64,000 nt of DNA from Candidatus Spongiihabitans sp. (GTDB lineage: Bacteria; Pseudomonadota; Gammaproteobacteria; Arenicellales; Poriferihabitantaceae): the NCBI RefSeq assembly GCF_965237845.1, contig NZ_OZ250154.1:115678-179677 (forward strand), written 5' to 3'. Below, piece by piece: positions 835 through 52,313 of the stretch (position 1 is its first letter; each line of letters opens with the position of its first letter). The notes under the pieces are model-generated. The model did no database searches. It was not told where the DNA came from and was given only the letters and a program-made list of their open reading frames with translations. A program made the position numbers and the translations under genes.

Positions 835-2409
835 ATGCCGCAGAATTATCCGGTCAACTATCTTAAAGCGATTCTCAATTCCAGAGTTTATGAGGCGGTG
901 AAAGAGACTCCTCTGGAGTTGGCGGGGCTATTGTCTGATCGCCTGGGAAGCAATATCTGGCTGAAGCGCGAAGATACCCCGCCAATTTTTTGCTACAAGA
1001 TTCGCGGTGCGTATAATAAAATGGTCAGTTTGACTGCGGGCGAATTGAAGCGCGGCGTGGTTGCGGCATCGGCCGGGAATCATGCTCAGGGCGTTGCCAT
1101 GAGCGCAAGGCAGCTAGGTTGCGAAGCCCTGATCGTGATGCCTGTTACGACGCCTTCAATCAAGATCGAAGCAGTTCGTCGCTGGGGCGCGAAACTTAAA
1201 CTAATAGGGGACAGCTATGATGAGGCTTTTGAGTACGCGCAAACCGTTTGCAGAAAACAGAAACGAAAATTTATTAGCGCATTTGACGACCCCTTGATAA
1301 TTGCCGGTCAGGGAACCGTCGGTCTTGAAATCATCAAGCAAAGTTCTGGGCCGTTGGATGCGGTATTTGTTCCAGTCGGCGGCGGCGGCTTGATATCCGG
1401 TATTGCCGTTTACATTAAGCAATTGCGACCGGAGGTTAAAGTCATCGGGGTTGAGCCGTTTGAATCGGATGCGCTGTATCAGTCGTTGAAAGCGGGCAAA
1501 CGAATCAAGCTAAACAGGGTGGGTATTTTTGCTGATGGGGTTGCGGTTAAACAAATAGGCAAAGAGAATTTCAAAATTTGCCGTGATTTCGTTGATGACG
1601 TTGTCAGAGTTAGCACGGATGAAATTTGCGCGGCGATCAAAGATATTTGTGAAGACACTCGCACCATTGTAGAGCCGGCCGGTGCGCTGGGTATCGCGGG
1701 CATCAAGCGGTGGTTGAAGGACAATGAGGGGAAAGGCCCAATCAAAAACCAGGGCAAAAACCAGGTCAAAGGACGGCGGCGTAAAAACAGGAATTTGGTG
1801 GCCATTGCTTCGGGCGCTAATATGAATTTTGATCGGTTGCGGCATGTTTCCGAGCGCGCCGAGGTCGGGGAGAAACGCGAGGCGATTCTCGCCGTGACCA
1901 TCCCGGAGAACCGCGGCAGTTTCCGGCGATTTTATCGAACTCTGGGACGCCGCAACATTTCCGAATTCAACTATCGATACGCCAGCGATGCGGAGGCGCA
2001 TATTTTTGTTGGGGTGCAGATCAAGCACCGTGACGAAATTGATGAATTGATAAAAAAGCTGGCGGCAAAAGGCATTGCCAGCCTTGATTTAACCGAAAAT
2101 GAATTGGCGAAAATACATGCGCGCTATATGGTTGGCGGGCGGGTGCCTGAAATTACCAATGAGCGTATATTTAGTTTCGAGTTTCCGGAACGCCCCGGGG
2201 CGCTGGGAAAGTTTTTGGATCAAATCGGAACAACCTGGAATATCACGTTATTTCATTACCGCAACCACGGTTCGGATTTTGGGCGGGTGCTATGCGGTAT
2301 TCAAGTGCCCAGCCAAAGTCGCAGGGAATTTAATAATTTCCTGCGGCAACTGGGTTACGCCTACCGCGAAGAAACGAATAATCCGGCATACACATTATTT
2401 TTACGATGA
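835..2409 (+). CDS. ilvA: biosynthetic threonine dehydratase (threonine ammonia-lyase)
   Basis: 524 aa. Has a PLP-lysine region (FCYKIRGAYN), GGGGL loop and two C-terminal ACT-like regulatory repeats (NISEFNYRY...). Contains a Lys/Arg-rich insertion. Confidence 0.95.
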   Translation: MPQNYPVNYLKAILNSRVYEAVKETPLELAGLLSDRLGSNIWLKREDTPPIFCYKIRGAYNKMVSLTAGELKRGVVAASAGNHAQGVAMSARQLGCEALIVMPVTTPSIKIEAVRRWGAKLKLIGDSYDEAFEYAQTVCRKQKRKFISAFDDPLIIAGQGTVGLEIIKQSSGPLDAVFVPVGGGGLISGIAVYIKQLRPEVKVIGVEPFESDALYQSLKAGKRIKLNRVGIFADGVAVKQIGKENFKICRDFVDDVVRVSTDEICAAIKDICEDTRTIVEPAGALGIAGIKRWLKDNEGKGPIKNQGKNQVKGRRRKNRNLVAIASGANMNFDRLRHVSERAEVGEKREAILAVTIPENRGSFRRFYRTLGRRNISEFNYRYASDAEAHIFVGVQIKHRDEIDELIKKLAAKGIASLDLTENELAKIHARYMVGGRVPEITNERIFSFEFPERPGALGKFLDQIGTTWNITLFHYRNHGSDFGRVLCGIQVPSQSRREFNNFLRQLGYAYREETNNPAYTLFLR

Positions 2410-3577: not shown

Positions 3578-4702
3578 ATGAAATTTGTTGATTTAGACGC
3601 GCAATTTAACCTTGTGGAAAAGGAAATCAGGGAAGCCATAGATCGGGTATTGGTGCATAAGCAATTTATTTTGGGCCCCGAAGTTGGCGTGTTTGAACAA
3701 GAATTAAAAGCGTATTGCGGGGTAAAACATGTCATCAGCGCGGCCAGCGGCACCGATGCGCTGTTGATGGCGTTGATGGCATATGGCGTTGGTCCGGGTG
3801 ATGGGATTATCGCGCCATCCTTTACCTTTGTTGCGACCGCCGAAGTTATTCAATTACTTGGCGCGACTACGGTATTTGTGGACGTTGATGAAGCCACATT
3901 TAATATGGATGTTGCGCGACTGGAAGAAACCATCCAAACCGTCAAGGGCGACCGCAAACTGAATCTTAAGGGCATCATTGCGGTGGATTTGTTTGGGCTT
4001 CCAGCCGACCACGATATCATTCAGGCCATTGCCGACCAGCATGGACTTTTTGTTGTGAGTGATGCGGCGCAGAGTTTTGGCGCTGAATATAAAAATAAAA
4101 AAGCAGGCGTGTTTGGAAATATTGCCACCACCAGTTTTTTCCCGTCCAAGCCGCTGGGATGTTACGGCGACGGCGGCGCTGTATTTACCGATAATCAGGA
4201 ACTAGCGGACATAGTGGAGTCCATTCGATTTCACGGCAAGGGTCATGGGAAAAACGGGCAATATGAAAATACTCGCATCGGTATTACCGGACGTCTCGAT
4301 ACGTTGCAAGCCGCTATCCTGAGTTGTAAATTGAAAATATTCAATCAAGAACTCGATAAACGCCAGGTAATCGCGGATATCTATCGCCGCGAACTGAATG
4401 ATGTCGTGATTACGCCGACCATACCGCCAGGATATAAAAGCTCGTGGTCGGTTTATACCATTCGCTCGGCCAAGCGCGACAACATCAGGCGGCATTTCAA
4501 TAAAAACGGCATTCCATCAGCCGTGTATTATCCTTCCCCGTTGCACCGCCAACCGGCATTTAAGAATGCGCTTGGCGGCGGTCAAATGATGCCGGTGACG
4601 GATAGGCTGGCAGACGAAGTACTGAGCCTGCCGATACACCCCTATCTGCAACCCGACGACCAAATGAAGATAATTGCTGCTGTAAAAACGGCTGTTGGCT
4701 AG
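3578..4702 (+). CDS. DegT/DnrJ/EryC1/StrS-family sugar aminotransferase
   Basis: MKFVDLDAQF...ILGPEV..FE.E...YCGVKH...SGTDAL...DAAQSFGAEY...FFPSKPLG is the canonical family signature. ATG at 3578 is preferred over TTG at 3563. Confidence 0.9.
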   Translation: MKFVDLDAQFNLVEKEIREAIDRVLVHKQFILGPEVGVFEQELKAYCGVKHVISAASGTDALLMALMAYGVGPGDGIIAPSFTFVATAEVIQLLGATTVFVDVDEATFNMDVARLEETIQTVKGDRKLNLKGIIAVDLFGLPADHDIIQAIADQHGLFVVSDAAQSFGAEYKNKKAGVFGNIATTSFFPSKPLGCYGDGGAVFTDNQELADIVESIRFHGKGHGKNGQYENTRIGITGRLDTLQAAILSCKLKIFNQELDKRQVIADIYRRELNDVVITPTIPPGYKSSWSVYTIRSAKRDNIRRHFNKNGIPSAVYYPSPLHRQPAFKNALGGGQMMPVTDRLADEVLSLPIHPYLQPDDQMKIIAAVKTAVG

Positions 4703-19643: not shown

Positions 19644-20351
19644 TCACATCGGCCGCCATGCCTGGTTGACAAAGCCAAACATCGGTTTGAAGTTGGTTTT
19701 ATAACTCATTTTTTTACAGCCCTCGATCCAGTATCCCAGGTATAACCAGTCCATTTGGATTTGACGGACGTACTCAATTTGTTTCATGATTGCAAATGTT
19801 CCCAGACTGCGTTTTGAAAAATCAGGATCGAAAAAAGTATAAACTGCCGACATGCCGTCATCCGGCAAGTCACAGACCGAAAGCCCGATTAATTTTCCCT
19901 TCAGCCGATATTCCATGAATACGGTTTCAATCAAAGATTTAACCACAAACTCGTGGTAGCGGTCTGAGTCGTTGTGGTCCATGGTATCTCCGCTGTGGCG
20001 CCACGATTGGTAACGACAATACAATTCAAAATGTTCCTGTTTGAAACTGGTGGGTACCATGGTGGTGTGGAGATCCTGATTTTTTTTGTAGCACCTGATT
20101 TGAGCACGATTGGGAAGATACGCATTGGCTGGAATTTTCACCGACACGCAGGCCTTGCAGTTTCGGCAATGCGGTCGGTAAATGGTTTTCCCGCTACGCC
20201 GAAACCCGGAGTTTAACAATACGCTAAACAGCGCATTATCTACTTTGTAATTGGGGTCCAGTAAAACCGTGGTTGCCGTTTCAGGTTCGATATAGGGACA
20301 GGCGTGGGGCGCGGAAAGATAAAGCTTCGGCGGGTTTAACTGAATGGTCAC
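19644..20351 (-). CDS. bpt: arginyl/aspartyl-glutamyl-tRNA--protein transferase (Bpt/Ate family)
   Basis: 235 aa. LYLSAPHACPYIEP...GFRRSG...YRPHCRNCKAC...LGYWI motifs. Confidence 0.85.
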   Translation of the reverse strand: MTIQLNPPKLYLSAPHACPYIEPETATTVLLDPNYKVDNALFSVLLNSGFRRSGKTIYRPHCRNCKACVSVKIPANAYLPNRAQIRCYKKNQDLHTTMVPTSFKQEHFELYCRYQSWRHSGDTMDHNDSDRYHEFVVKSLIETVFMEYRLKGKLIGLSVCDLPDDGMSAVYTFFDPDFSKRSLGTFAIMKQIEYVRQIQMDWLYLGYWIEGCKKMSYKTNFKPMFGFVNQAWRPM

Positions 20352-20787
20352 GGGTTATGTCACAGCGATTATTTACGGATTAAGCATGACATAAACCGGG
20401 TCATTTTCTGAGTGTCCGAAATATGACTTCTCCCACTCTGGTTCAGAAAAAGAAAATGCCGTCATAGCGAGCGCTGAACCTAATGCAAGTATCTATCCCA
20501 ATGATTCACGCGCAGAAAGGGCTGTTGCCTCTTTAAAATTATCTTCCGTTACCCTAAATTTGTTAATAATCAGTGAGTTCCGCACTCACGAGAAACATCG
20601 TTTTCATTAGTATGATTATCTTCCGGCAATTTCAGTTTTTGCACGAACGCTTGATGCATTTGTGTATGATTTTCTTTCATTTCTATCCTTTACCCAATAA
20701 TAACATCCACAATCCATAGATAAATTTGTTTTCTTTGGTACATTTGGATGACTAAAATATGTTGTGTACATATTAAGAAACTATACC

Positions 20788-20845
20788 TTCTAACGCCCGC
20801 ATAACCGGCCGCTTTTGGCAGTCCGCGTGTATGCTTTTGTTAGCT
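20788..20845. other. attC-like imperfect palindrome (site 1)
   Basis: tTCTAAC-GCCCGCATAACCGGCC...CCGCGTGTATGCTTTT-GTTAGCt. The terminal CTAAC/GTTAG are complementary, the inner arms pair imperfectly, and the left arm is near-identical to site 2. Confidence 0.45.
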
Positions 20846-20852
20846 ATTTTGC

Positions 20853-20879
20853 TGCTTATAGTATGTAGACTTATAAGCA
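20853..20879. promoter_or_regulatory. C-box-like operator upstream of the controller gene
   Basis: GCTTATAGT-atgta-GACTTATAAGC (outer palindrome TGCTTATA/TATAAGCA), 26-52 bp upstream of the ATG at 20905. Resembles the GACT-N3-AGTC tandem C-box layout. Confidence 0.55.
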
Positions 20880-20904
20880 TCATGATATTTATATTGTTTT
20901 CTAA

Positions 20905-21135
20905 ATGAGAAAAGCAAGCCAACTTATCACAAATACATTATCCAATAATATCAAAAAGCTTCGTGGTGATCTGAATTTATCACAAGAAGATCTTGCTGAT
21001 AAATGCGGACTCCACCGTACTTATGTTGGTGCGGTAGAACGAGGCGAACGGAATGTAACATTAAGTTCGTTAGAAACTATAGCTTCAGCTTTAAATGTAG
21101 ATGTTCCCACTTTATTAACCGATAAGTCAAAGTAG
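20905..21135 (+). CDS. R-M controller (C) protein, XRE-type HTH
   Basis: 76 aa. LRGDLNLSQEDLADKCGLHRTYVGAVERGERNVTLSSLETIA is the classic C-protein sequence pattern. Sits immediately upstream of the nuclease gene. Confidence 0.8.
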   Translation: MRKASQLITNTLSNNIKKLRGDLNLSQEDLADKCGLHRTYVGAVERGERNVTLSSLETIASALNVDVPTLLTDKSK

Positions 21136-21140
21136 TTTAT

Positions 21141-22241
21141 ATGGATGTAAGATTAAAGAAACCACCTAAAAGCAAAAGTCTTTTAACATCTTTGCCCGAT
21201 TTGGCAAAAAAACTTGAATCCCTAATAAATACTAAGTTTGAACTTACAGGAAAATCAAGAACAGATGGTTCAAATATTCGTAAATTAATAGCCGATAAAT
21301 TAATCAATTCAAACCCGCCACCATACGCAGAAAAAAATTCTTATGAGGTAGTCCCACCCAAAGGTGTACCTAAAATTCTTTTAGAATATGTCGATACATA
21401 TATCGTAACGACGGGTACATCGTATAACCTTCAAGTTTGGAATAGAAATCCTTCATCAGAATCCGTTCAAATCCAATATTCAAGCGGTGAAACACTTCAA
21501 TCAGGTGAAGTTCGCTTTGTATTAGTAAAAATTGATCCAGATAACCACAAGGTCATTGCTATCGCTGTACTAACACCTGAATATATCGTAAATAAATTTG
21601 GAGTGTTTGGCAAACCAACAGTAAAAAATCAACTGGTTATCTCCTCTTCATTGCGGCGGTTTGTATTAGCAAAACCAAATGGAGTATTGTTTTATGACGA
21701 TATGGTTGGGGATAAAGAAAACATTAAAAACCTATCACTTTTTAGTATTCACGACCAGCCAACAACTGGATCATTATTACCACTGTCAATAATCAAGGAA
21801 ATTATTATTAATAAAATTATTGGGTGTAATATTGCGCCAGCAGCTACCAAAAATAGAGGGCAAATGCTTGAAGAGATATTTGCCGGTGCATTAGGTTACA
21901 GTATTGGCGATAATGAATTGCTTTCTGGTGGATACCCTGATCTTCGCAACCAAGCACTAGAAGTAAAAATTCAAGATTCTCCAACAGTTGATTTAGGAAA
22001 GTTTAGTCCTGAATTTGAAATTACTGCTCCAGATTGCGGTAACTTTACAACTCGAAATATGCGTTATTTTATAGCTCTTACCAATCCTGAAACTAACATA
22101 GTTGAAGGTGCAATATTATGCCAAGGAAATAAGCTTGGTTTACATTTCACCTACGTTCCAGACGAAAGCTATAAATGCCAGAGATCAATACCAATGAGTT
22201 TTTTTGAAGGCATAAAAGGACTATCGGTATTTAATCCGTAA
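21141..22241 (+). CDS. putative type II restriction endonuclease
   Basis: 366 aa, coupled 5 bp after the C gene and convergent with the methylase. Candidate PD-(D/E)xK motif in GGYPDLRNQALEVKIQ. No family assignment is possible by eye. Confidence 0.6.
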   Translation: MDVRLKKPPKSKSLLTSLPDLAKKLESLINTKFELTGKSRTDGSNIRKLIADKLINSNPPPYAEKNSYEVVPPKGVPKILLEYVDTYIVTTGTSYNLQVWNRNPSSESVQIQYSSGETLQSGEVRFVLVKIDPDNHKVIAIAVLTPEYIVNKFGVFGKPTVKNQLVISSSLRRFVLAKPNGVLFYDDMVGDKENIKNLSLFSIHDQPTTGSLLPLSIIKEIIINKIIGCNIAPAATKNRGQMLEEIFAGALGYSIGDNELLSGGYPDLRNQALEVKIQDSPTVDLGKFSPEFEITAPDCGNFTTRNMRYFIALTNPETNIVEGAILCQGNKLGLHFTYVPDESYKCQRSIPMSFFEGIKGLSVFNP

Positions 22242-22251
22242 TTGTTGATAC

Positions 22252-23994
22252 CTACGAGACATTAAAAACCGACCAAACGATTTTATCAATTTTATCTTCG
22301 ATGTTTATTTGGTTATTTTCATTTTTTTCCTTGTAGCATTCTTTAGCCAAAGCAATCAATGTTTTTGATTCTGCAAGATTTGGGTTTGGTATAGGGAACT
22401 GTTCAACATACTGGGTAATAAACCGCCTTCTATTTGAGTAGAGTTTATTGTGAAATTTTATATCATAAAATTTTTCTATAAAACGTGAATTAGCTACTGC
22501 TAAAACAAGCCACATAATACTCTCTGGCATTTGTTCATTATCACGTAATAACCAATAGCAGTCTCCATTTACAATGCTTCCTTCTTTATCCATCCAGAAT
22601 GTTGGACGTTCACTTATGTCACGAAAGACAACTTTTGGTTGCTCCCAAAGTGATGGGTTCTGCGGAACCCAAATTTCAAACCATTCTCTATTAGCTTTAA
22701 TAACATACTTCCTACTACTAAGTTGATCTTTGTTTTCTTCAAGATACCTTTTAGACAGAGGATATTCATTAATGTTAAATGTGTGCCTTTTTCCATTAAT
22801 GATAGTATGAGTGTAAAGAATTACCTTTTTCTCTTTTTCATTGCTCCTGAACCGACTAGCGATATGATGTGTGGTTAATGGGCGTAATAATTCAGGCTCG
22901 TAACCAATTTCTTTTTTCCAATTTGACCTAATAAATACATTATCAGCAGTTGTTTTTACACCAACACGAACTTTCCCTATATCTTTAAACAGACACCATG
23001 TATTAGATGCCACTTTATCCAACCATTGCTCATACTCTACGTCTTGAAGTCGCCACAAATCAGCCGGATTGGAATCAAATGTTAGGTGTCCATTTTTAAC
23101 ATAGAAATTACCTTGTTTTGAAGAAACAATACCATCATATTTTAGGGCTTGAATTTGGCTTTCAACGAAAGGAAGGCTTTTTGAATAACTTTCATTTTCA
23201 GCCATGTAAATAGATGAAAAAGGGATATTAAAGTCCCTTTCTTTGTTGTGTGTTGAAAGAATGACTACTGCTGGCAAAACAGCAGCCTCAAAAACTTTAG
23301 TATCACCGAAATCCCAAATCCCTTTAATTGAATATTGGTTATGGATAATTTCTCTAAATTTCCCCGCACCTTTTGTTGTCAGGAAACGATTAGAAACGAT
23401 CACGCCAGCGACTCCATCAGGTTTTAACACCGATTTCATCGCAACCAAGAATGCTTGGTAAATATCAACTCTTCCCTTTAGCCCGAAATTCTTACTTAAT
23501 AGTTGAGATTGTTCTGCACCTAAAACTTGAGTTCGTATATACGGAGGGTTTGCTATTAATAAGTCAAAATCTGGTATATCACTTGAATAAAATAAATCTT
23601 GCGAGTCAGACAGCCCACTCTTTTCTATACATATCTGAAGGAAGTCTTTATTTTGCAAAATTGGAGTAAGATTAGGGTAAGTTTCTTTTAATCTTTTCCT
23701 GGTTATTTCAATTGACGCGGGGTTTGTATCAAATCCATAAACCTCAATGTTATGGAACGATTTGGCTTTTAATGTTTTTATTAGACTTATCAGTAATTCA
23801 CCATCCCCTACAGCGGGATCAACCACCTTTACGGATTTTTTCAAGTTAGCATTGAAAATAATATTTTCTGAAATAAAATCAGAAAAAATCTCTGGAGTAT
23901 AATGTGCACCTTCTTTTTTTCTTGATTCTACATGGCTATATCGTTCAGCTGTTTGCATTGGACTCCCCATATTGATGCTACTTATAGTATTCAT
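22252..23994 (-). CDS. N6-adenine DNA methyltransferase (gamma class, Eco57I/TaqI-like)
   Basis: 580 aa. SAM motif VVDPAVGDGELL precedes the catalytic LLIANPPYIR, followed by a large C-terminal target-recognition region. Confidence 0.9.
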   Translation of the reverse strand: MNTISSINMGSPMQTAERYSHVESRKKEGAHYTPEIFSDFISENIIFNANLKKSVKVVDPAVGDGELLISLIKTLKAKSFHNIEVYGFDTNPASIEITRKRLKETYPNLTPILQNKDFLQICIEKSGLSDSQDLFYSSDIPDFDLLIANPPYIRTQVLGAEQSQLLSKNFGLKGRVDIYQAFLVAMKSVLKPDGVAGVIVSNRFLTTKGAGKFREIIHNQYSIKGIWDFGDTKVFEAAVLPAVVILSTHNKERDFNIPFSSIYMAENESYSKSLPFVESQIQALKYDGIVSSKQGNFYVKNGHLTFDSNPADLWRLQDVEYEQWLDKVASNTWCLFKDIGKVRVGVKTTADNVFIRSNWKKEIGYEPELLRPLTTHHIASRFRSNEKEKKVILYTHTIINGKRHTFNINEYPLSKRYLEENKDQLSSRKYVIKANREWFEIWVPQNPSLWEQPKVVFRDISERPTFWMDKEGSIVNGDCYWLLRDNEQMPESIMWLVLAVANSRFIEKFYDIKFHNKLYSNRRRFITQYVEQFPIPNPNLAESKTLIALAKECYKEKNENNQINIEDKIDKIVWSVFNVS

Positions 23995-24038
23995 TATTTA
24001 GGGTGAAGTCAATAGTTGAGATATAGTTTATTTGAGAC

Positions 24039-24113
24039 AGCTAACGCCTGCATAATCGGCGTAGCTTTGCTGCGTCCGGCGCTGAAGGCGCGTAGTTCAT
24101 GCGCTTGTTAGAC
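24039..24113. other. attC-like imperfect palindrome (site 2)
   Basis: aGCTAAC-GCCTGCATAATCGGCG...CGCGTAGTTCATGCGCTT-GTTAGAC. On the minus strand it starts GTCTAAC (RYYYAAC), and that heptamer holds the TAA stop of the 125-aa ORF. Confidence 0.5.
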
Positions 24114-24485
24114 GCCATGCGTATTCATGTCCTTTGCCGCTTCCAAAGCCAGCAACATCCAGTATTTCTGTTGGGAAATGGGAATCAGCACCCAACTCCT
24201 GGATGGATTCCCCCTTTCTTTTGGGTTCCAAGTCTCCGCGCCGGCAATCGAATACGTCTGACTTAACTGGCCTTCCCCAAGTTTAAACGACATGTCGATT
24301 TCCGAAAATGTTGCAAACATCTTCCGACCTAGCATGAGTTGACGTCGACACCAGCGTGAGGAGACGGAGAAGTTCGAATACTCACCCTCAATTCGCTCGA
24401 TGATCAATTCAAGGCTTGCTTCTGCACTGTCGGTCATTATCCCTATGCTTGGTCGCCTAACGCTTGAGTCATGTGTTTTTTTCAT
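24108..24485 (-). CDS. hypothetical 125-aa protein (weak TfoX-N/YjbR-like pattern)
   Basis: ORF with higher GC than its neighbours. ...LGRKMFATFSEIDMSFKLGEG... loosely resembles the TfoX_N/YjbR fold pattern. Its stop codon lies inside attC-like site 2. Confidence 0.45.
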   Translation of the reverse strand: MKKTHDSSVRRPSIGIMTDSAEASLELIIERIEGEYSNFSVSSRWCRRQLMLGRKMFATFSEIDMSFKLGEGQLSQTYSIAGAETWNPKERGNPSRSWVLIPISQQKYWMLLALEAAKDMNTHGV

Positions 24486-24552
24486 TTATAGCTCTAAACA
24501 GCACACATCTTTATCCAAAGACCAATTTTAGTTGCTTTCTTGTTGCTCCTAT

Positions 24553-25098
24553 CTATTCTCTTTGTAAGCTTGATAAGTCAACGACGGCACCATGCTCAAT
24601 AAATACATCGTAGAACTTATCATAATCCCTACCCCAGTAACTCATTGCACATGCCATGGGAGCGCCTTTGCCTGCACCGGAACCATTTTCAAGAAATTTT
24701 AGTCTTGTGTCATAGAGAAAACAAACGGCTCTCGCTTGCCCGAAAACACTTTGCTTCCAATGACCTGTATTTGTCGCTACCGGAACTAAAGCCAATATTT
24801 CCGAACTATATTTTTGGTGAGTTAAAGCACACTTTGCTAACCAATTTTTTATTGTTGTCCCTCTTTCTCTGTCAGCACCATATGGTGGATTCATATAGAC
24901 GGTCGGATAGTTCCAATCTTCTCTAAGTCCATCATTTTGTGGAAGCGTAAATTCTATCTCTGCATGCACTATCGAATATTTATTTGAGCAAGGGTCTAAT
25001 GCAATAGCACCACCAAAAAAACGTTTAATGGCTTTTACATATTTAAGAGGTGTTCCCCAGCTTTGACTTTGAGAATTTACTGTTCTTCCTGCACTCAT
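24553..25098 (-). CDS. phage-type DNA N6-adenine methyltransferase (Dam, Pfam05869-like)
   Basis: 181 aa. WGTPLKYV...ALDPCSN...DGL..DW...VYMNPPYG...W..K matches the small phage Dam family layout. ATGA overlap with the upstream ORF. Confidence 0.8.
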   Translation of the reverse strand: MSAGRTVNSQSQSWGTPLKYVKAIKRFFGGAIALDPCSNKYSIVHAEIEFTLPQNDGLREDWNYPTVYMNPPYGADRERGTTIKNWLAKCALTHQKYSSEILALVPVATNTGHWKQSVFGQARAVCFLYDTRLKFLENGSGAGKGAPMACAMSYWGRDYDKFYDVFIEHGAVVDLSSLQRE

Positions 25099-26231
25099 AG
25101 TATTTCTTTCCAGTTTTTAGAACGTAACTCTACGAGTTCGCTCTTTAGTTCAGTAATTGTTTTTCCTTCTGGTGCGATGGTGTTAAACCAGCCTTCAATT
25201 TCATTTAATTTGTCCGAAAAGTATTTGAGCAAAACTGTGTCTGCTTCAAAATCCATCTTGACCTTTGTAAAAACGTTTCGCTTTTTATCAGCAGTATAGC
25301 TACTTTTAAAAGCCTCTTGTACCTTGATATATTCCTGTGTTGGATTGAGCAATAACTCATCAATGAATTGAGCCAGTCCGTTATCCGTTAAAAAAATTAA
25401 CCAATCGTATGATTGGGCTAAAACCTTCAATTCTTTGTTATGATTTTCGGCAGTGAACCAATTTCCATGATTACTGACTACTCCAACGGTTAAAATGAAT
25501 TTTTGTAGCAAGTCAGAGTCATCAGAGTAAATTATTTCCTCCATCAATTCAACATAAGGCTTTATGTACGGTTGGTTGTCAGAACGATATATTATCCCAT
25601 ATTTTTCTCCAGTGTCAGTCCTAATTTTTTGTAAGGAGGACGTGGTTCTTGCAACGTACGCTCCCTGTTTTGCTTTTTCTATTGTCTGAGGGCCTTTCTT
25701 TGTTCCTTCTTCAACTCCGACCCTTTTGCACTCAAATATTGCATAAGGTTTTTACATTTGCTCAAAGACTAATAATTCATGCTCTTGTTGTCCAATAGTC
25801 TTAAAACTGGTCAATAAAAATGAGTCTTTTGACTCACCAATGGTACAAGCGTTACGAAGAACATTATGTGTATCAAGAAGATTGTTATTCTTTTTGTCAA
25901 ATTTTGTAATATTGTTTTTTTCTCCCAATGCTTTTAGGATTTTGGCCGCTGTAATTGAATTCCCATCATTGGGAATAGCAACTCCATACTCTTTGATTAT
26001 GGGATGCAGGGAGTATTCAACATTATGTGATATATCTTCATTCCCATATTCAACAAGTCCTCTTTCTATTGAAGTCGAGTTATTAAAACCCCAAGTTTTT
26101 AGAAGATAATAGGTTATAATTTCAACCATTGTTCCAAGCGCTCTGCCTGCTGCTTTTTTCTTATCTTTCGTGTAATGAAAGACTTTTTCGCCAAGAGCAT
26201 TCTGTAATTTATCTACCGATTCATATGCCAT
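25095..26231 (-). pseudogene. putative PD-(D/E)xK restriction endonuclease interrupted by a single in-frame TAA (25752-25754)
   Basis: The 159-aa ORF (26231-25752), the 68 codons in between, and the 150-aa ORF (25547-25095) are all in one frame. The read-through sequence is ...LLVFEQM*KPYAIFECKRVGVEEG..., which contains an E-x-K nuclease motif. Confidence 0.65.
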
Positions 26232-26396
26232 TTGTTTTTATAACTTCCCAATTTTTGTGTTCATTATCAGTTGTCAATTTTTCCTGCACATAACGGCGCG
26301 AAGCGCCGTGTGAACAATTAGCATCAGGCACATTTGCTCTGATAAGTCGATATTACCCGGTAGATCGGGCAAACCGTCATAACATTAAGCATTTTG

Positions 26397-27077
26397 TTAT
26401 TGTGGTTCTACCGGAATATTTTTCCAGCTTCCCGGTTTGCCGACATGAGTCAACGCACAGCCTAATCGCTCAAGGAATTCTGTACGAGGAATTTCTACGG
26501 CGCCCAGGTTCAATAAATGAGGCGACGTTATTTGGCAATCGATAAGCTGAAAATTCCAGGTTGTTAAATGGGAGATTAAAAAGTTCAATGCCGCTTTGGA
26601 GGCATCGCTGGTCTGACTAAACATACTCTCGCCAAAAAACATGCCGCTCAACGCAATTCCGTACAAACCGCCAACCAATTGGTCATCTTTCCAGGTTTCT
26701 ATGGAATGAGCATATCCCAAGTGATGCAGATCAATATAGGCATCCTTCATATCTTCGGTGATCCAGGTGCCAGCGCTGTTCGTACGCGGTGCGGCACAGT
26801 TATTGATGACTTCCTCAAAGGTTTGGTCGAGAGAAAAAACAAAGCGCTGTTTTTTGATTGATTTTTTCAGGCTTCGTTGTGGTTTGTATTGCGCAGGGAA
26901 TAAAACGCATCTAGGGTCGGGTGACCACCACAGGATCGGCTGGCCAGCGTGATACCAGGGGAAGATACCTTTTCGGTAGGCGGTCATTAGACGCTGCGGA
27001 CTTAAATCTCCGCCAAGTGCCAGCAAACCGTCGTCTGTAGCGTATTTAACATCAGGAAAATCTTCTACGGTATTCAT
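26397..27077 (-). CDS. aat: leucyl/phenylalanyl-tRNA--protein transferase
   Basis: LLALGGDLSPQRLMTAYRKGIFPWY...PILWWSPDPR...GGLYG...FFGESMF motifs. ATG at 27077 is preferred. Confidence 0.9.
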   Translation of the reverse strand: MNTVEDFPDVKYATDDGLLALGGDLSPQRLMTAYRKGIFPWYHAGQPILWWSPDPRCVLFPAQYKPQRSLKKSIKKQRFVFSLDQTFEEVINNCAAPRTNSAGTWITEDMKDAYIDLHHLGYAHSIETWKDDQLVGGLYGIALSGMFFGESMFSQTSDASKAALNFLISHLTTWNFQLIDCQITSPHLLNLGAVEIPRTEFLERLGCALTHVGKPGSWKNIPVEPQ

Positions 27078-27195
27078 GTTGCTGGTATTTATAGGGCCAA
27101 AGACATATAGTGCCAAAGGCAAAACGCAATTTCAGTTGTGCGCCTTTCGATTATGTGTGTCAATATACTATTTAGCTGTTATAAAATCCATCAAT

Positions 27196-28401
27196 GCGAA
27201 GCGCCTGATCAATTAAGAAATAACTACGATGGGGATGAGTGCCGGAAGTGAGGCTTCAGCCTCGCCAATCCATTGCAGATGGCAGGACTAAAGTCCCGCT
27301 TCCGATAAGCAATAACTACCGAGGTGCGAAGCGCCTGATCAATTAAGAAATAACTACGATGGGGATGAGTGCCGGAAGTGAGGCTTCAGCCTCGCCAATC
27401 CATTGCAGATGGCAGGACTAAAGTCCCGCTTCCGATAAGCAATAACTACCGAGGTGCGAAGCGCCTGATCAATTAAGAAATAACTACGATGGGGATGAGT
27501 GCCGGAAGTGAGGCTTCAGCCTCGCCAATCCATTGCAGATGGCAGGACTAAAGTCCCGCTTCCGATAAGAAATAACTACCGAGGTGCGAAGCGCCGGATC
27601 AACTAAGAAATAATTACGATGGGGATGAGTGCCGGAAGTGAGGCTTCAGCCTCGCCAATCCATTGCAGATGGCAGGACTAAAGTCCCGCTTCCGATAAGA
27701 AATAACTACCGAGGTGCGAAGCGCCTGATCAATTAAGAAATAACTACGATGGGGATGAGTGCCGGAAGTGAGGCTTCAGCCTCGCCAATCCATTGCAGAT
27801 GGCAGGACTAAAGTCCCGCTTCCGATAAGCAATAACTACCGAGGTGCGAAGCGCCGGATCAACTAAGAAATAATTACGATGGGGATGAGTGCCGGAAGTG
27901 AGGCTTCAGCCTCGCCAATCCATTGCAGATGGCAGGACTAAAGTCCCGCTTCCGATAAGCAATAACTACCGAGGTGCGAAGCGCCTAATCAATTAAGAAA
28001 TAACTACGATGGGGATGAGTGCCGGAAGTGAGGCTTCAGCCTCGCCAATCCATTGCAGATGGCAGGACTAAAGTCCCGCTTCCGATAAGAAATAATTACC
28101 GAGGTGCGAAGCGCCTGATCAATTAAGAAATAACTACGATGGGGATGAGTGCCGGAAGTGAGGCTTCAGCCTCGCCAATCCATTGCGGATGGCAGGACTA
28201 AAGTCCCGCTTCCGATAAGCAATAACTACCGAGGTGCGAAGCGCCTGATCAATTAAGAAATAACTACGATGGGGATGAGTGCCGGAAGTGAGGCTTCAGC
28301 CTCGCCAATCCATTGCGGATGGCAGGACTAAAGTCCCGCTTCCGATAAGAAATAATTACCGAGGTGCAAAGCGCCCGATCAACTAAGAAATAATTACCGA
28401 G
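27196..28401. repeat. tandem array of 9 full and 1 partial copies of a 130-bp non-coding unit
   Basis: Unit starts fall at 27196 + n*130 (n = 0-9), with near-identical copies. No ORF of 60 aa or more on either strand. Abuts the tsaD GTG at 28402. Confidence 0.97.
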
Positions 28402-29442
28402 GTGAGAATTTTAGGCATTGAAACTTCCTGCGATGATACAGGCGCGGCTATCTACGATAGCCATCAAGGCTTGATTGTGCATCGATTGGCTTCTCAAGTT
28501 GATTTGCATCAACAATACGGTGGCGTGGTTCCAGAACTTGCCGCACGCGATCATATTCGAACGCTACTGCCGCTGATCGACAGCTTGATTAAGGACCCAG
28601 TGAATGACGCAGAAAAACTGGATGCGGTGGCTTACACCGCTGGGCCAGGGTTGGTTGGCGCACTGCTGGTTGGTGCTTCGTTGGGCAAAAGTCTGGCGCA
28701 ATCCTGGGCTGTGCCCGCTATCGGCATCCATCATATGGAGGGACATTTACTATCCCCCATGCTGGAAGATAATCCCCCGGAATTTCCATTTTTAGCGTTG
28801 TTGGTTTCTGGAGGACACACACTTTTAGTTGACGTGGAAGCGGCCGGCAACTACAAAATCCTGGGCCAGTCAGTCGATGATGCGGTGGGCGAGGCGTTTG
28901 ACAAAACTGCGAAACTGCTGGGCTTGGATTATCCCGGAGGCCCCGCCATCGCAAAAGCGGCGGTCAATGGCGATGCCAATAGATTCATTTTTCCGCGGCC
29001 AATGACCAACCGCCCCGGTCTGGATTTCAGTTTCAGCGGATTGAAAACGCATACCTTAACCGCCACGCAAAAACAAGCGCAAAAACATCAGTTGGATGAA
29101 CAAACCATTGCGGATATTGCTTTGGCATTCGAGCTTGCCGTGGTTGATACGCTCAAGATTAAGTGTTCGAGGGCGCTGTCTCAAACCATGCGAAAACGAT
29201 TGGTTGTGGCTGGCGGGGTCGGGGCAAATCAACGATTGCGAGCAACATTGCAAAAATTAGCCGATCAAAATAATGTTAGGTTATTCTACCCACGCGCGGA
29301 ATTTTGCACCGATAACGGCGCAATGATTGCCTATGCGGGCTACTTTCGATTAGCCACTGAGGGACTGGCAAATAGGCGATTGGCCACTGTCAACGACTAT
29401 GCGTTTGAGGTGCACCCCAGATGGAGTCTGGAAGACATTTAG
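28402..29442 (+). CDS. tsaD: tRNA N6-adenosine threonylcarbamoyltransferase
   Basis: [19 protein letters not shown]...HHMEGH...LLVSGGHT is the canonical TsaD/Kae1 pattern. GTG start. Confidence 0.95.
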
Positions 29443-33888: not shown

Positions 33889-34826
33889 ATACCGCTTTTA
33901 TATACGATCCGATATTTCTGAACCATGATACTGGAGCGGGCCACCCTGAACGCAGTCAGCGTTTGAGCGCGGCCTATAATGTGCTTAGCGCGCAGCCGTG
34001 GTTCAGTAATCTACAGTGCCTGAAAACAGCTAAAGCGGATTTGCAATGGATTGGCGCGGTCCATGATGATCGGTATATCGGTAGAGTGAAACAAGCCTGC
34101 GATCTGAAGCAACGACATATTGATTCACTGGATGTCTCGATTTGCAAAGCGTCTTATGATGTGGCGTTAAACGCGGTGGGCAGTGTTTTGGCGGTTGCCG
34201 ATGAAGTCATGGCCAATAAAGTGGACAATGGATTCGCCATGATTCGGCCGCCAGGGCATCATGCCGAGGTAAATCTGGCGATGGGATTTTGCTTGTTCAA
34301 CAGCATTGCAATTGCCGCCAGATACCTGCAGAAAAAATACCGCTTGGAGCGGGTATTGATTCTTGATTGGGATGTGCACCATGGCAATGGCACTCAGCAT
34401 ATTTTCGAACAGGATTCTTCGGTGTTTTATATTAGTGTGCATCAATTCCCACACTATCCCGGAACCGGGGCGCTTGCTGAAACCGGCATTGGCGAGGGCC
34501 AGGGCGCGACGCTAAATTGCCCGATGAGTCCGGGCTTGGGGGATGAGCATTATCGCCAGGCTTTCAAGGAAATTATACTGCCCAGGGCAAAAACCTTCGC
34601 CCCGGATGCGGTGCTGATTTCCGCTGGATTCGATGCCCACAAAGCCGACCCGCTGGGTTCCATCAATCTCAATAGCCAAAGCTATGTATGGATGACGCAG
34701 ACGATGATGGAACTGGCCGATCAGTGTTGCGAGGGACGGTTGATTTCGGTGCTTGAGGGCGGCTACGATCTCAGCGCACTGGCCGAATCCGTCACCGAAC
34801 ACGTCAAAACGATGAGTCAGTCTTAA
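33885..34826 (+). CDS. histone deacetylase-family amidohydrolase (acetoin-utilisation/APAH-like)
   Basis: RPPGHHA...LILDWDVHHGNGTQ...SAGFDAH..DPLG...EGGY motifs. Confidence 0.9.
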   Translation: MNTAFIYDPIFLNHDTGAGHPERSQRLSAAYNVLSAQPWFSNLQCLKTAKADLQWIGAVHDDRYIGRVKQACDLKQRHIDSLDVSICKASYDVALNAVGSVLAVADEVMANKVDNGFAMIRPPGHHAEVNLAMGFCLFNSIAIAARYLQKKYRLERVLILDWDVHHGNGTQHIFEQDSSVFYISVHQFPHYPGTGALAETGIGEGQGATLNCPMSPGLGDEHYRQAFKEIILPRAKTFAPDAVLISAGFDAHKADPLGSINLNSQSYVWMTQTMMELADQCCEGRLISVLEGGYDLSALAESVTEHVKTMSQS

Positions 34827-37370: not shown

Positions 37371-37985
37371 TTAATGTAATGCCGAGATATACAACGCCAG
37401 TTGCTTGATTTGTTGTTCACTAAGCGGAAAAGCGATAGGATTCATTATCGGGCTGTTTCGCTCCCCGGATTTGAACGCCAATAATTGCGTTTCGATATAG
37501 CTTGCATGTTGACCGGCCAGTCTCGGAAAGTTGGGAGGAATGCCGCTTCCTGACGGGCCGTGGCATCCCATGCACGCTGGCACATTGAATTCGGCGCTGC
37601 CACCACGAAAAACCGCTTCGCCGGCTCGCGCTTGTTGCTCCTGGTCAGCGGTTATGGATCCGCCGGAAATTTGTTGTTCCGAATAATAGGCATCCAGATC
37701 AGCCATGTCTTGTTCAGACAAGGCGCCGACTATCCCGCCCATTATTGGATCTGTCCGCTCGCCAGACTTAAAATTAGCCAGTTGCGCGGCGATATAACCG
37801 GCCACTTGTCCGGCAATTTTAGGAAACTGGGCAACCGGACTATTGCCATCGGCGCCGTGGCAAGCCATACAAGTAATCGACTTTTGCTTTCCTGCTTTAG
37901 CATCACCGGATTGCGCCGCGCTGTTCGCGTTAATCGCGAATGCGAGCGCCAGAGAAACCATCAAAATTTTAAACATGCGAATCAT
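37371..37985 (-). CDS. dihaem cytochrome c4
   Basis: Signal peptide plus two CxxCH sites (CMACHG, CMGCHG) with distal PIM Met motifs. Divergent from engB, as in pseudomonads. Confidence 0.9.
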   Translation of the reverse strand: MIRMFKILMVSLALAFAINANSAAQSGDAKAGKQKSITCMACHGADGNSPVAQFPKIAGQVAGYIAAQLANFKSGERTDPIMGGIVGALSEQDMADLDAYYSEQQISGGSITADQEQQARAGEAVFRGGSAEFNVPACMGCHGPSGSGIPPNFPRLAGQHASYIETQLLAFKSGERNSPIMNPIAFPLSEQQIKQLALYISALH

Positions 37986-38046: not shown

Positions 38047-38377
38047 CACCCTTTTTAACAATATTCTTAGATTAGGGTACAAGTATACCGTGAATTTAAG
38101 TTATTCATTTTCAGTTTGGCTCGTGCCGTTTCCTTTAAAATAAACATGTATCAGGTGCACCCTTTTTAACAATATTATTAGATAGGGCGCAAGTATACCG
38201 TGAATTTAAGTTATTCATTTTCAGTTTGGCTCGTGCCGTTTCCTTTAAAATAAACATGTATCAGGTGCACCCTTTTTAACAATATTATTAGATAGGGCGC
38301 AAGTATATCGTGAATTTAAGTTATTCATTTTCAGTTTGGCTCGTGCCGTTTCCTTTAAAATAAACATGTATCAGGTG
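38047..38377. repeat. 3 tandem copies of a ~110-bp intergenic unit
   Basis: Unit starts (caccctttttaacaatatt...) are at 38047, 38158 and 38268. The array ends at 38377. Copies 2 and 3 are almost identical. Confidence 0.95.
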
Positions 38378-38440
38378 CACCGACCGGGAGAGAACACGTA
38401 AAATCAAGCGCGAATTATATCAACAATTATTGCTAAAAAC

Positions 38441-39058
38441 TTGGCCACGATCGCCCCAATAGACTTCACCAACGCGAGTTACGCTTTGGCAGCGCACTAC
38501 CCAAGCCAATGGCCACCGGACATAGGCGCGGAAGTGGCGTTCGCCGGGCGCTCAAATGTGGGCAAGTCCAGCGCGATTAATGCAATTACCAATCAAAATC
38601 GCCTGGCAAAAACCAGTAAAACCCCAGGCCGAACCCAACAAATCGTGTTTTTCGAGTTACAGGATTCGTTGCGGTTGGTGGATTTGCCCGGATATGGTTA
38701 CGCCAAAGCGCCCGCGAATTTGCGAAAACACTGGCAGGAATTTATTTCCGACTACCTATCCGCTCGTCAATGCTTGCGCGCCTTAGTCATGCCAATGGAT
38801 ATCCGCAGACCGCTAACCGAACTGGATATCATCATGCTGGAGTATTGCTGGGAGATCGAGTTGGCGGTGCATGTGCTGCTGACCAAGGCGGACAAATTCA
38901 AGCGCGGAAAGGCGTTAAATATTTTGCAAGCCGTAAGCAAGGATTTGCAATCCCAACCGCAGACCACAGTGCAGTTATTTTCCGCGGCAAATAAACAAGG
39001 CGTGGATGAGGCGCGGAAACATTTGACCGGATATTTGCATGAAAATGTGGTGACTTAG
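38441..39058 (+). CDS. engB: ribosome-biogenesis GTPase EngB/YihA
   Basis: EVAFAGRSNVGKSSAINAIT...DLPGYGYAK...LLTKADK GTPase motifs. The exact start is uncertain (TTG). Confidence 0.9.
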   Translation: MATIAPIDFTNASYALAAHYPSQWPPDIGAEVAFAGRSNVGKSSAINAITNQNRLAKTSKTPGRTQQIVFFELQDSLRLVDLPGYGYAKAPANLRKHWQEFISDYLSARQCLRALVMPMDIRRPLTELDIIMLEYCWEIELAVHVLLTKADKFKRGKALNILQAVSKDLQSQPQTTVQLFSAANKQGVDEARKHLTGYLHENVVT

Positions 39059-52236: not shown

Positions 52237-52313
52237 GGGCCTGTAGCTCAGCTGGTTAGAGCAGTGGACTCATAATCCATTGGTCGTAGGTTCAAGTCCT
52301 ACCGGGCCCACCA
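52237..52313 (+). tRNA. ileX: tRNA with CAU anticodon, most likely tRNA-Ile2 (lysidine) rather than elongator Met
   Basis: Cloverleaf by eye: acceptor GGGCCUG/CGGGCCC, anticodon loop CU-CAU-AA, T-arm GGTTCAAGTCC, encoded CCA. The sequence and its position after rpoD parallel E. coli ileX. Confidence 0.85.

Follow-up and report, generated by a model that had tools for sequence, protein, structure and literature searches.

Between the divergent genes aat and tsaD of Candidatus Spongiihabitans sp. lies an array in which a non-coding unit of 130 bp is repeated 9.3 times, head to tail, at positions 27196-28401 of the 64,000-nucleotide stretch of contig NZ_OZ250154.1 analysed here (hereafter, the window). 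Our analysis makes it highly probable that this array is a tandem cluster of REPINs, that is, inverted doublets of repetitive extragenic palindromic (REP) sequences, comparable with the type 2 bacterial interspersed mosaic elements (BIME-2) of Escherichia coli, that it is hypervariable, and that it has captured the flanking leader of tsaD. The initial annotation of this DNA, made from the sequence letters, knew of no described element with such an architecture. The core of the unit is, however, a REPIN; tandem REPIN and BIME clusters that include flanking sequence have been described (PMC3116915, PMC3733652, PMC3333891), and the unit in substance matches a known mobile element of the kind that resembles miniature inverted-repeat transposable elements (MITEs).

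Tandem Repeats Finder, run on the window, returns the repeat as one array at 27195-28397 with a period of 130, 9.3 copies, 97% matches, a score of 2273 and no indels. Unit starts fall at 27196 + 130k (k = 0-8), both on reading the sequence and in a per-copy comparison, and the nine full units occupy 27196-28365 (+), a delimitation based on these two analyses together with decomposition against the related loci L001, L081 and L117 described below; a partial tenth copy begins at 28366 and continues into the tsaD GTG at 28402. Differences among the copies, 16 in total, are confined to unit positions 11, 12, 18, 29, 82, 115 and 121 and combine as a mosaic across copies; both hairpin arms are free of them. 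Every unit ends in ...AATAAYTACCGAGGTG, identical to the sequence that ends in the true tsaD start codon, and each of these start-site copies is followed by the miniature open reading frame (ORF) GTG CGA AGC GCC TGA, or, in copies with G in place of T11, by a nine-codon version. The array contains no ORF of 60 aa or more; the only ORFs are 35-aa GTG frames, one per unit, which are translated hairpins. The initial annotation had described the copy number as assembled, the partial copy, the near-identity of the copies, the lack of coding capacity and the repeated start region, and all of these are borne out.

Each unit can be divided into a 92-bp REPIN segment (GATGGGGATGAGTG + REPIN + AT + AAGMAATAAYTAC) and the 38-bp tsaD leader, CGAGGTG CGAAGCGCCTGATCAATT AAGAAATAACTAC. 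The full layout of the 92-bp segment is GATGGGGATGAGTG, the REPIN itself (CCGGAAGTGAGGCTTCAGCCTCGCC-AATCCATTGCAGAT-GGCAGGACTAAAGTCCCGCTTCCG), AT and AAGCAATAACTAC. Pattern searching places the first REPIN at 27242-27305, with a REP arm at 27243-27266 (+) and an inverted REP arm at 27281-27304 (-), separated by the spacer AATCCATTGCAGAT. The following six lie at 27372-27435, 27502-27565, 27632-27695, 27762-27825, 27892-27955 and 28022-28085, and the last two, at 28152-28215 and 28282-28345, carry the spacer variant GCGGAT, as the per-copy comparison also shows. All 18 REPs of the window found by the pattern search sit in the array. At its 5' end the first leader copy (27196-27227) lacks CGAGGTG, and at its 3' end the array closes with 1.5 leader copies, 28347-28404 (+), which read AAGAAATAATTAC CGAGGTG CAAAGCGCCCGATCAACT AAGAAATAATTAC CGAGGTG, the final GTG (28402-28404) being the start codon of tsaD.

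The assignment of the hairpin to the REP class follows from its behaviour in other genomes. The two arms of the array are inverted copies of one 24-nt motif, matching at 17 of 24 positions with all differences being transitions, and each 24-nt REP forms a 7-bp stem with a 4-nt loop (about -11 kcal/mol). A 24-nt search pattern, CGGAAGYGRGRCTTYAGYCYYGCC, scanned over 185,579 species-representative genomes, is found at at least 111 loci in at least 43 assemblies, against a chance expectation of ~0.5 as estimated from the size of the collection. Among the matches listed are four Ca. Spongiihabitans genomes, the isolate Psychromonas hadalis, Thiotrichaceae, Methylococcaceae and Sedimenticola, together with Sulfurimonas, Sulfurovum, Sulfuricurvum, Desulfocapsa, Ghiorsea and Mariprofundaceae. 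The family thus extends over Gammaproteobacteria, Campylobacterota, Zetaproteobacteria and Desulfobacterota, with one Anaerolineae metagenome-assembled genome (MAG) and one 'Promethearchaeota' MAG, the last comprising 19 low-coverage contigs that are possibly mis-binned.

Within the 137 instances listed, which represent 22 sequence variants, the stem occurs as GGGAC/GTCCC, GAGGC/GCCTC, GGGGC/GCCCC and GAGAC/GTCTC. Pair 9-20 is G-C in 94 instances, A-T in 40 and otherwise composed in 3, and pair 11-18 is A-T in 89, G-C in 43 and otherwise composed in 5; the resulting covariation has a Fisher p of ~1e-30 over all instances and of 0.002-0.01 over unique variants. The 5' flank CGGAAG is present in 137/137 instances by construction of the search pattern. 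Only 21 of the 137 copies (15%) lie in ORFs of at least 150 aa, a class that makes up 82% of the fetched DNA. This combination of dispersal, extragenic location and compensatory stem changes identifies the hairpin of the array, at the level of sequence, as a REP.

The doublet arrangement is likewise widespread. Spongiihabitans, Desulfocapsa and Helicobacteraceae all have recurrent convergent REP doublets at a distance of 31-40 nt, and the geometry of the window doublet is found also at loci L033, L037, L044, L047, L060, L074 and L077. Spongiihabitans genomes match the 64-bp REPIN of the window over its full length, with 88-95% identity, at more than 20 sites elsewhere; separate REP-bearing 8-kb blocks number at least 13 in the congener NZ_OZ252047.1 and at least seven in the congener LS_SOB (Candidatus Spongiihabitans thiooxidans). 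The 38-bp leader, unlike the 64-bp doublet, matches the tsaD locus alone. Other tandem arrays of the same REP family are present at L018, L041, L068, L079 and L088.

In the minimum-free-energy fold, arm 1 pairs with arm 2 to give one long hairpin of -30.2 kcal/mol for the 64-nt segment. The initial annotation had proposed a three-way junction closed by CGGAAG/CTTCCG; the sequences that it named are present, and such a junction could form, but built by hand it reaches only ~-23 kcal/mol and is less stable than the arm-arm REPIN hairpin. It is also imperfect, because its closing helix and first hairpin share a G.

Two further features of the REP sequence may be recorded here. The commonest REP core, GGGACTTTAGTCCC (for example window 27281-27304(-)), is perfectly palindromic, like the sites to which NarL/LuxR-family regulators bind, and we take it to resemble a DosR box, a likeness that is probably coincidental. 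A literature search for the hairpin 14-mers did not find this REP sequence, its sole match being a paper on the DosR box and DosR DNA binding in Mycobacterium tuberculosis, in which this core occurs. In NZ_OZ252047.1 the REPIN is central in a ~305-bp repeat with flanks GTTGATCGCGGTCACCGTCAACGGCCCT ... GCCGCCGGCCTGACCTGCTTTAAGCGCAC, of which at least six dispersed copies are 93-96% identical (L047 6424-6726; L025, L033, L034, L038, L049); this is a larger, composite MITE-like element built round the REPIN.

Clustering of the ORFs at REP loci gives one recurrent small family, with the motifs HLPHID...MPNHVHLL...YYDKxIRDEKH...YIxxNP; the other recurrent families round the REPs are housekeeping only (ABC ATPase, EF-G, Der, AspRS, histidine kinases). 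Members of the small family are REP-associated tyrosine transposases (RAYTs), not DDE transposases. Those at L088 (Ghiorsea, 4023-4565(-)), L028 (Alcanivoracaceae, 1492-2001(-)) and L059 (Sulfurimonas, 4027-4575(+)) match Pfam Y1_Tnp with E values from 1e-11 to 1e-14 and have REPs 10-30 bp from the ORF ends. The RAYT clade with which this REP is always paired shows ~50% mutual identity and scores under the NCBIfam RAYT cut-off, and in the PDB nothing matches at E up to 0.001, the nearest entries being transposase chains of the IS200/IS605 type, with weak matches (E 0.0025 and weaker).

A search of proteins with the Ghiorsea RAYT as query leads back to the genus under study, to P0158, 'transposase [Candidatus Spongiihabitans sp.]', a protein of 252 aa that is 56% identical to the query. 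The contig on which P0158 lies measures 2,740,517 bp, exactly as long as the one that bears the window TsaD. Its best NCBIfam model is REP_Tyr_transpos (NF047646, REP-associated tyrosine transposase) at 65.6 bits, compared with 38.6 for IS200. The N-terminus of P0158 as called, EVRLQPRQAIVNGVTKTPLP (MEVRLQPRKVTAQTAGLKSRFRDWSEVRLQPRQAIVNGVTKTPLP), is translated REPIN DNA: EVRLQPR is GAAGTGAGGCTTCAGCCTCGC, AGLKSRFR corresponds to GCAGGACTAAAGTCCCGCTTCCG, and a 20-residue N-terminal stretch has 75% identity to the array's own translation, EVRLQPRQSIADGRTKVPLP. If P0158 belongs to the source contig, the source genome would have a RAYT gene preceded by the same REPINs as those of the array.

Where the unit came from can be read from the relatives, here the close homologues of the window TsaD with retrievable loci, in all of which the synteny aat <-> tsaD - plsY - folB - folK is retained. 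Directly 5' of the array lies a conserved, divergent promoter-like block, 27140-27193 (+), defined by a six-locus alignment and by the L114, L115 and L116 sequences. In L114, L115 and L116 (~80% TsaD identity) the tsaD ATG follows directly upon this block (...TATACT...GTTGTAAAATCCATCA-ATGAGAATTTTAGG), with neither leader nor hairpins. L001 and L002 (89% TsaD identity) carry a single 38-bp insertion before the start (in L001, ATG-CGAAGCGCCCGATCAATCAAGAAATAACTACCGAG-ATG) and no hairpins; L118 and L119, which belong to the same 90% cluster as the TsaD of L001, have one diverged 38-bp leader, again with no hairpins. Only the window, L117 and L081 have the extra 92-bp segment in the leader and tandem arrays. 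Because relatives show the leader alone or neither part, the unit is, on this comparison, a composite of 38 bp of local leader and 92 bp of added sequence, and the 'tenth copy' of the array, which matches the single leader of L001, L002, L118 and L119, is identified as the ancestral leader.

The three arrays differ markedly in organisation, although the loci are closely related: L117 has 96.6% nucleotide identity to the window downstream of tsaD, and L081 (LFLB01000023, from LS_SOB) falls in the same 90% protein cluster, with 88-94% nucleotide identity to the window. The window has the 130-bp unit in 9.3 copies. In L117 the 92-bp REPIN segment stands alone, lacking the CGAGGTG start motif; it is present at least 2.6 times (the contig ends in the array) and is followed by 1.5 leader copies. 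L081 has a 77-bp unit (REPIN plus the linker GGTGGGGATGAGTG) in five copies, in which the shorter CCGAGGTG motif is all that is kept of the leader, followed by the 38-bp leader, repeated 3.6 times. Close relatives thus differ in unit length and copy number, and the tsaD-upstream locus is, as far as these sequences go, hypervariable. The suggestion in the initial annotation of a hypervariable variable-number tandem repeat (VNTR) in a divergent promoter region agrees with these differences and with the position of the array just after the promoter-like block. A metagenome scan for the leader/REPIN junction AATAAYTACGATGGGGATGAG gave 0 matches. A CRISPR array, suggested by the 77-nt spacing of the L081 matches, was rejected: the 'spacers' are identical, and the inter-hairpin sequences are repeated in the window and in L081.

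How might such an array have arisen? The starting state would be that of the distant relatives, in which the tsaD ATG stands directly after the promoter-like block. A 38-bp leader (ATG-CGAAGCGCC...CCGAG-ATG) then arose in the ancestor of the closer relatives, and a REP doublet from the genus-wide REPIN population, now present in the leader, would have inserted after AAGAAATAACTAC, presumably mobilised by the genome's RAYT. The resulting leader-REPIN-leader structure, which the 3' end of the array still displays, was then amplified, likely by unequal recombination or replication slippage between short direct repeats, with a 130-bp phase as the outcome in the window, a 92-bp phase in L117 and 77-bp and 38-bp phases in LS_SOB. 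The repeats that bound these phases are the 38-bp leader copies (130 bp), the 13-bp AAGMAATAAYTAC (92 bp) and CCGA and CCGAGGTG microhomologies (77 bp); slippage or unequal recombination is indicated, since every phase has at its borders a short direct repeat that leader-REPIN-leader already contained. RAYT-mediated strand transfer, as modelled for BIMEs (PMC3333891), would be an alternative route of amplification. Since the 38-bp leader was co-amplified, the tsaD start was duplicated with it, and the nine copies of the start context with their mini-ORFs would be by-products of that co-amplification and not a selected decoy device. Any effects on tsaD or aat expression, such as hairpin-mediated stabilisation or attenuation, upstream ORFs (uORFs), or topological insulation as for E. 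coli REPs, would be secondary.

Both the array and its proposed origin have close parallels. In Pseudomonas fluorescens SBW25, ordered REPIN clusters consist of nearly identical units repeated 'including the flanking sequences' (Bertels & Rainey 2011, PMC3116915), and they share with the present array the inverted REP doublets, the long hairpin, the head-to-tail order and the extragenic location. The RAYT gene of SBW25 is flanked by the same REPINs (PMC3116915), as would also be the case here to judge from the P0158 protein. The present array is larger, with nine REPINs in 1.2 kb compared with four in ~700 bp in the largest SBW25 REPIN cluster (PMC3116915); its REP sequence is unrelated to that of SBW25, having the 5' flank CGGAAG and no GTAG; and the flank amplified along with it, unlike those of SBW25, comprises the site where translation of an essential gene begins. 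E. coli BIME-2 elements, which at a given locus differ from strain to strain in copy number and linkers (Ton-Hoang et al. 2012, PMC3333891), show the same alternation of REP and inverted REP with short linkers in multiple, well-conserved tandem copies at one locus, and the E. coli TnpA(REP) system, like this family, has a Y1 HUH transposase relative flanked by REPs. The models of RAYT strand transfer or recombination put forward for that system (PMC3333891) could explain the amplification of the array. The REP consensus nevertheless differs, the RAYT is only distantly related, and the unit here holds 38 bp of unique host leader whereas E. coli BIME-2 contains only family linkers. With the GTAG/CGTC REP superfamilies (Di Nocera et al. 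2013, PMC3733652) the family shares the 7-bp stem and 4-nt loop, but it has the conserved 5' flank CGGAAG in place of a GTAG or CGTC tag. Bacterial VNTR or minisatellite loci, finally, resemble the array in being intergenic, with a long period (here 130 bp), high copy identity and variation in copy number and phase between close relatives; in contrast to an anonymous VNTR, the repeat here was nucleated by a mobile REPIN with an identifiable family and transposase. The REP family may be undescribed, but the class is known.

Several observations weigh against the assignment of the array to a REPIN cluster, or against parts of the history proposed for it. No copy of the REP occurs elsewhere in the 64-kb window, by blastn-short or by a pattern search allowing 3 mismatches, and we infer dispersal of the REPIN in the source genome from the congeners and from the REPIN-encoded extension of the RAYT protein. 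P0158, at 65.6 bits, falls below the NCBIfam equivalog cut-off of 80. Neither a GTAG nor a CGTC tag stands beside the stem in the sequences read. Transposition of the IS200/RAYT type produces no target duplication, so that simple insertion does not account for the 13-bp direct repeat AAGMAATAACTAC on either side of the REPIN segment. The chance of the REP arms escaping all seven variable sites is ~0.04, which could reflect constraint or merely recent amplification, and the neutrality of the array is an assumption. The copy numbers of LS_SOB, moreover, may be collapsed, because this is an older draft, in all likelihood short-read, with a contig of 18,969 bp.

A simple insertion with target duplication was considered as the origin of the 13-bp repeat and rejected, as it does not fit a Y1 transposase. 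The 13-bp AAGMAATAAYTAC flanks the 92-bp segment and the arms are inverted repeats; the dispersed REPIN copies elsewhere show no duplication of the 13-bp type.

Could the array instead be a device, selected for its effect on the genes beside it? A translational decoy or uORF ladder, or a copy-number 'rheostat' (contingency locus) tuning tsaD, with or without an insulating function for the aat-tsaD promoters, would account for the exact tsaD start context in every unit with its four- or nine-codon ORF, for the position between the conserved promoter-like block and the start codon, and for REP arms free of variation; copy number and phase differ among close relatives, as in contingency loci, and E. 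coli REPs are reported to act on termination, mRNA stability and supercoiling (PMC3333891). Co-amplification of the 38-bp leader is, however, enough to account in full for the duplicated start. In L117, the closest relative, the amplified unit has 92 bp and lacks the CGAGGTG start motif, LS_SOB amplified REPIN and leader separately, and a single leader with no REPIN suffices in four sister lineages. There is no Shine-Dalgarno motif at normal spacing 5' of the tsaD GTG, and a consensus scan finds no promoter- or terminator-like site within the 130-bp unit. We found no positive evidence for the decoy array that the initial annotation had put forward, and consider a cis-regulatory device decidedly improbable. 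A trans-acting structured RNA, with units processed to ~130-nt small RNAs (sRNAs) or serving as a sponge for an RNA-binding protein or sRNA, is less probable again. It would draw on the stable hairpin of each unit (-30 kcal/mol for the REPIN) and on the nine near-identical copies. But the whole-unit fold is not unusual compared with shuffles (z = -1.6 on the plus strand and -0.8 on the minus strand), conservation of the unit fails even among the closest relatives, and the part of it that is structured is a mobile DNA element, which many genomes carry in either orientation and in unrelated surroundings. No Rfam family matches the array even at E up to 10, the best score in a scan of the array being that of SNORA57 (E = 5.5, 12.8 bits compared with a gathering score of 40); at gathering score the window as a whole yields a tRNA at 52237 only. 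The structured sRNA or protein sponge proposed earlier has no positive evidence behind it, and we regard a function of this kind as extremely improbable.

Mis-assembly must also be weighed, since repeat arrays are error-prone in assemblies and the L117 contig (2x coverage) breaks inside its array. An inflated copy number, or an array created wholly by repeat mis-assembly, is nevertheless very improbable: the seven variable sites occur in mosaic combinations across nine copies, which collapse or expansion would not produce, independent assemblies of two relatives carry tandem arrays at the same site, and the source is a single 2.74-Mb contig, apparently a long-read assembly. We conclude that a tandem REPIN cluster that has captured the tsaD leader gives much the best account of the locus.

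The genes on either side are as initially annotated. The leucyl/phenylalanyl-tRNA--protein transferase gene aat, 26397-27077 (-), is divergent from tsaD and matches NCBIfam TIGR00667 (E 1e-64); its start is likely the ATG at 27077 (translation MNTVEDF...), where the gene calls of relatives also begin, although the mechanical ORF reaches a TTG at 27122. The gene for the t6A37 threonylcarbamoyltransferase subunit, tsaD, 28402-29442 (+), has a GTG start and matches TIGR03723 (E 8e-130), and its orthologues begin MRILGIETS at the same position. In the promoter-like block between the two genes, TATACT (27164-27169) and TAAAAT (27182-27187) are invariant in all relatives of the six-locus alignment, and the block may well act as a promoter; a promoter and terminator scan of 26900-28600 gave 0 sites, fewer than in shuffles, with no strong sigma-70 match to consensus. 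The ATG at 27194-27196 (+) occupies the ancestral tsaD start position (compare ...aaaatccatcaATGAGAATTTTAGG in L114-L116) and opens a four-codon mini-ORF at the head of the array, 27194-27208 (ATG CGA AGC GCC TGA), the L001 counterpart of which has nine codons. The last leader copy contains a nine-codon uORF at 28364-28393 (GTG...TAA), with its stop 8 nt before the tsaD GTG, as is the case in L001 (3963-3992). As aat is divergent and the unit contains no promoter-like site, tsaD is probably transcribed through the array, which would then form a structured 5' untranslated region of ~1.2 kb. In the distant relatives TAAAAT lies 6 nt before the tsaD ATG, a spacing that, speculatively, would fit a leaderless tsaD mRNA.

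Other features of the window are recorded for completeness. Fifteen nucleotides at 34042-34056(-) match unit positions 68-82 exactly (CGCCAATCCATTGCA, the end of arm 1 and spacer), with an E value of 0.006 within the window; this is probably due to chance, the alternative being a decayed REPIN remnant. A second intergenic tandem array, at 38047-38381, has 3.0 copies of 110 bp with 97% identity, a unit end of ...ATGTATCAGGTGCA and no REP motif; it too is in a divergent promoter region, between ORFs 37371-37985(-) and 38441-39058(+). Beside aat is a low-GC island (window ~20000-26300, GC 34-40%) in which the ORF 24553-25098(-) has a weak match, below cut-off, to a phage N6-adenine methyltransferase-like family (TIGR01712, E 5e-8). 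Window 25000-25725 has 98.8% identity to L081, compared with 94% in the adjacent aat region, and window 25598-26264 has 98.2% identity to L001, compared with 86%; the high identity of these stretches relative to aat suggests that the segment beside aat is mobile and was recently exchanged. More low-GC patches lie at 40-42 kb and 60-62 kb of the window.

The array is ordinary in kind, and its residual interest lies in its position before an essential gene, its hypervariability in three phases and the cross-phylum distribution of its REP and RAYT. For annotation, an orphan-looking repeat is now explained, and should be masked or labelled as a REPIN cluster and not mined for sRNAs. The locus is also a stepwise natural example of a REPIN insertion seeding a hypervariable minisatellite, and the genomes sampled preserve every stage: loci without a leader, loci with one, and loci in which leader-REPIN-leader was amplified, in three different phases. 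Evidently 1.2 kb of hairpin-rich sequence can be tolerated between the conserved promoter block and the start codon of an essential gene, and the locus could serve as a strain-typing marker for Ca. Spongiihabitans.

Two bolder interpretations, which even taken jointly we think unlikely, would have wider consequences. In the first, RAYT-driven amplification would have captured the translation start of tsaD and so made a leader of variable copy number, with nine uORF/start-site copies and 18 REP hairpins, the length of which would determine the expression of tsaD, and perhaps of aat, as a contingency-type rheostat in a sponge symbiont. REP sequences are usually lineage-specific, and REPIN-RAYT systems are generally held to be vertically inherited. 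Horizontal spread of an undescribed, CGGAAG-flanked REP/RAYT family is suggested because the breadth of this REP exceeds the usual lineage-specificity; if it is real, the near-identical 24-nt hairpin common to Gammaproteobacteria, Campylobacterota, Zetaproteobacteria and Desulfobacterota would represent REPIN-RAYT transfer. The REP family and its RAYT clade are spread over several phyla, for the most part of marine organisms that oxidise sulfur or iron, and deserve separate attention in the debate over vertical versus horizontal inheritance of REPIN-RAYT systems.

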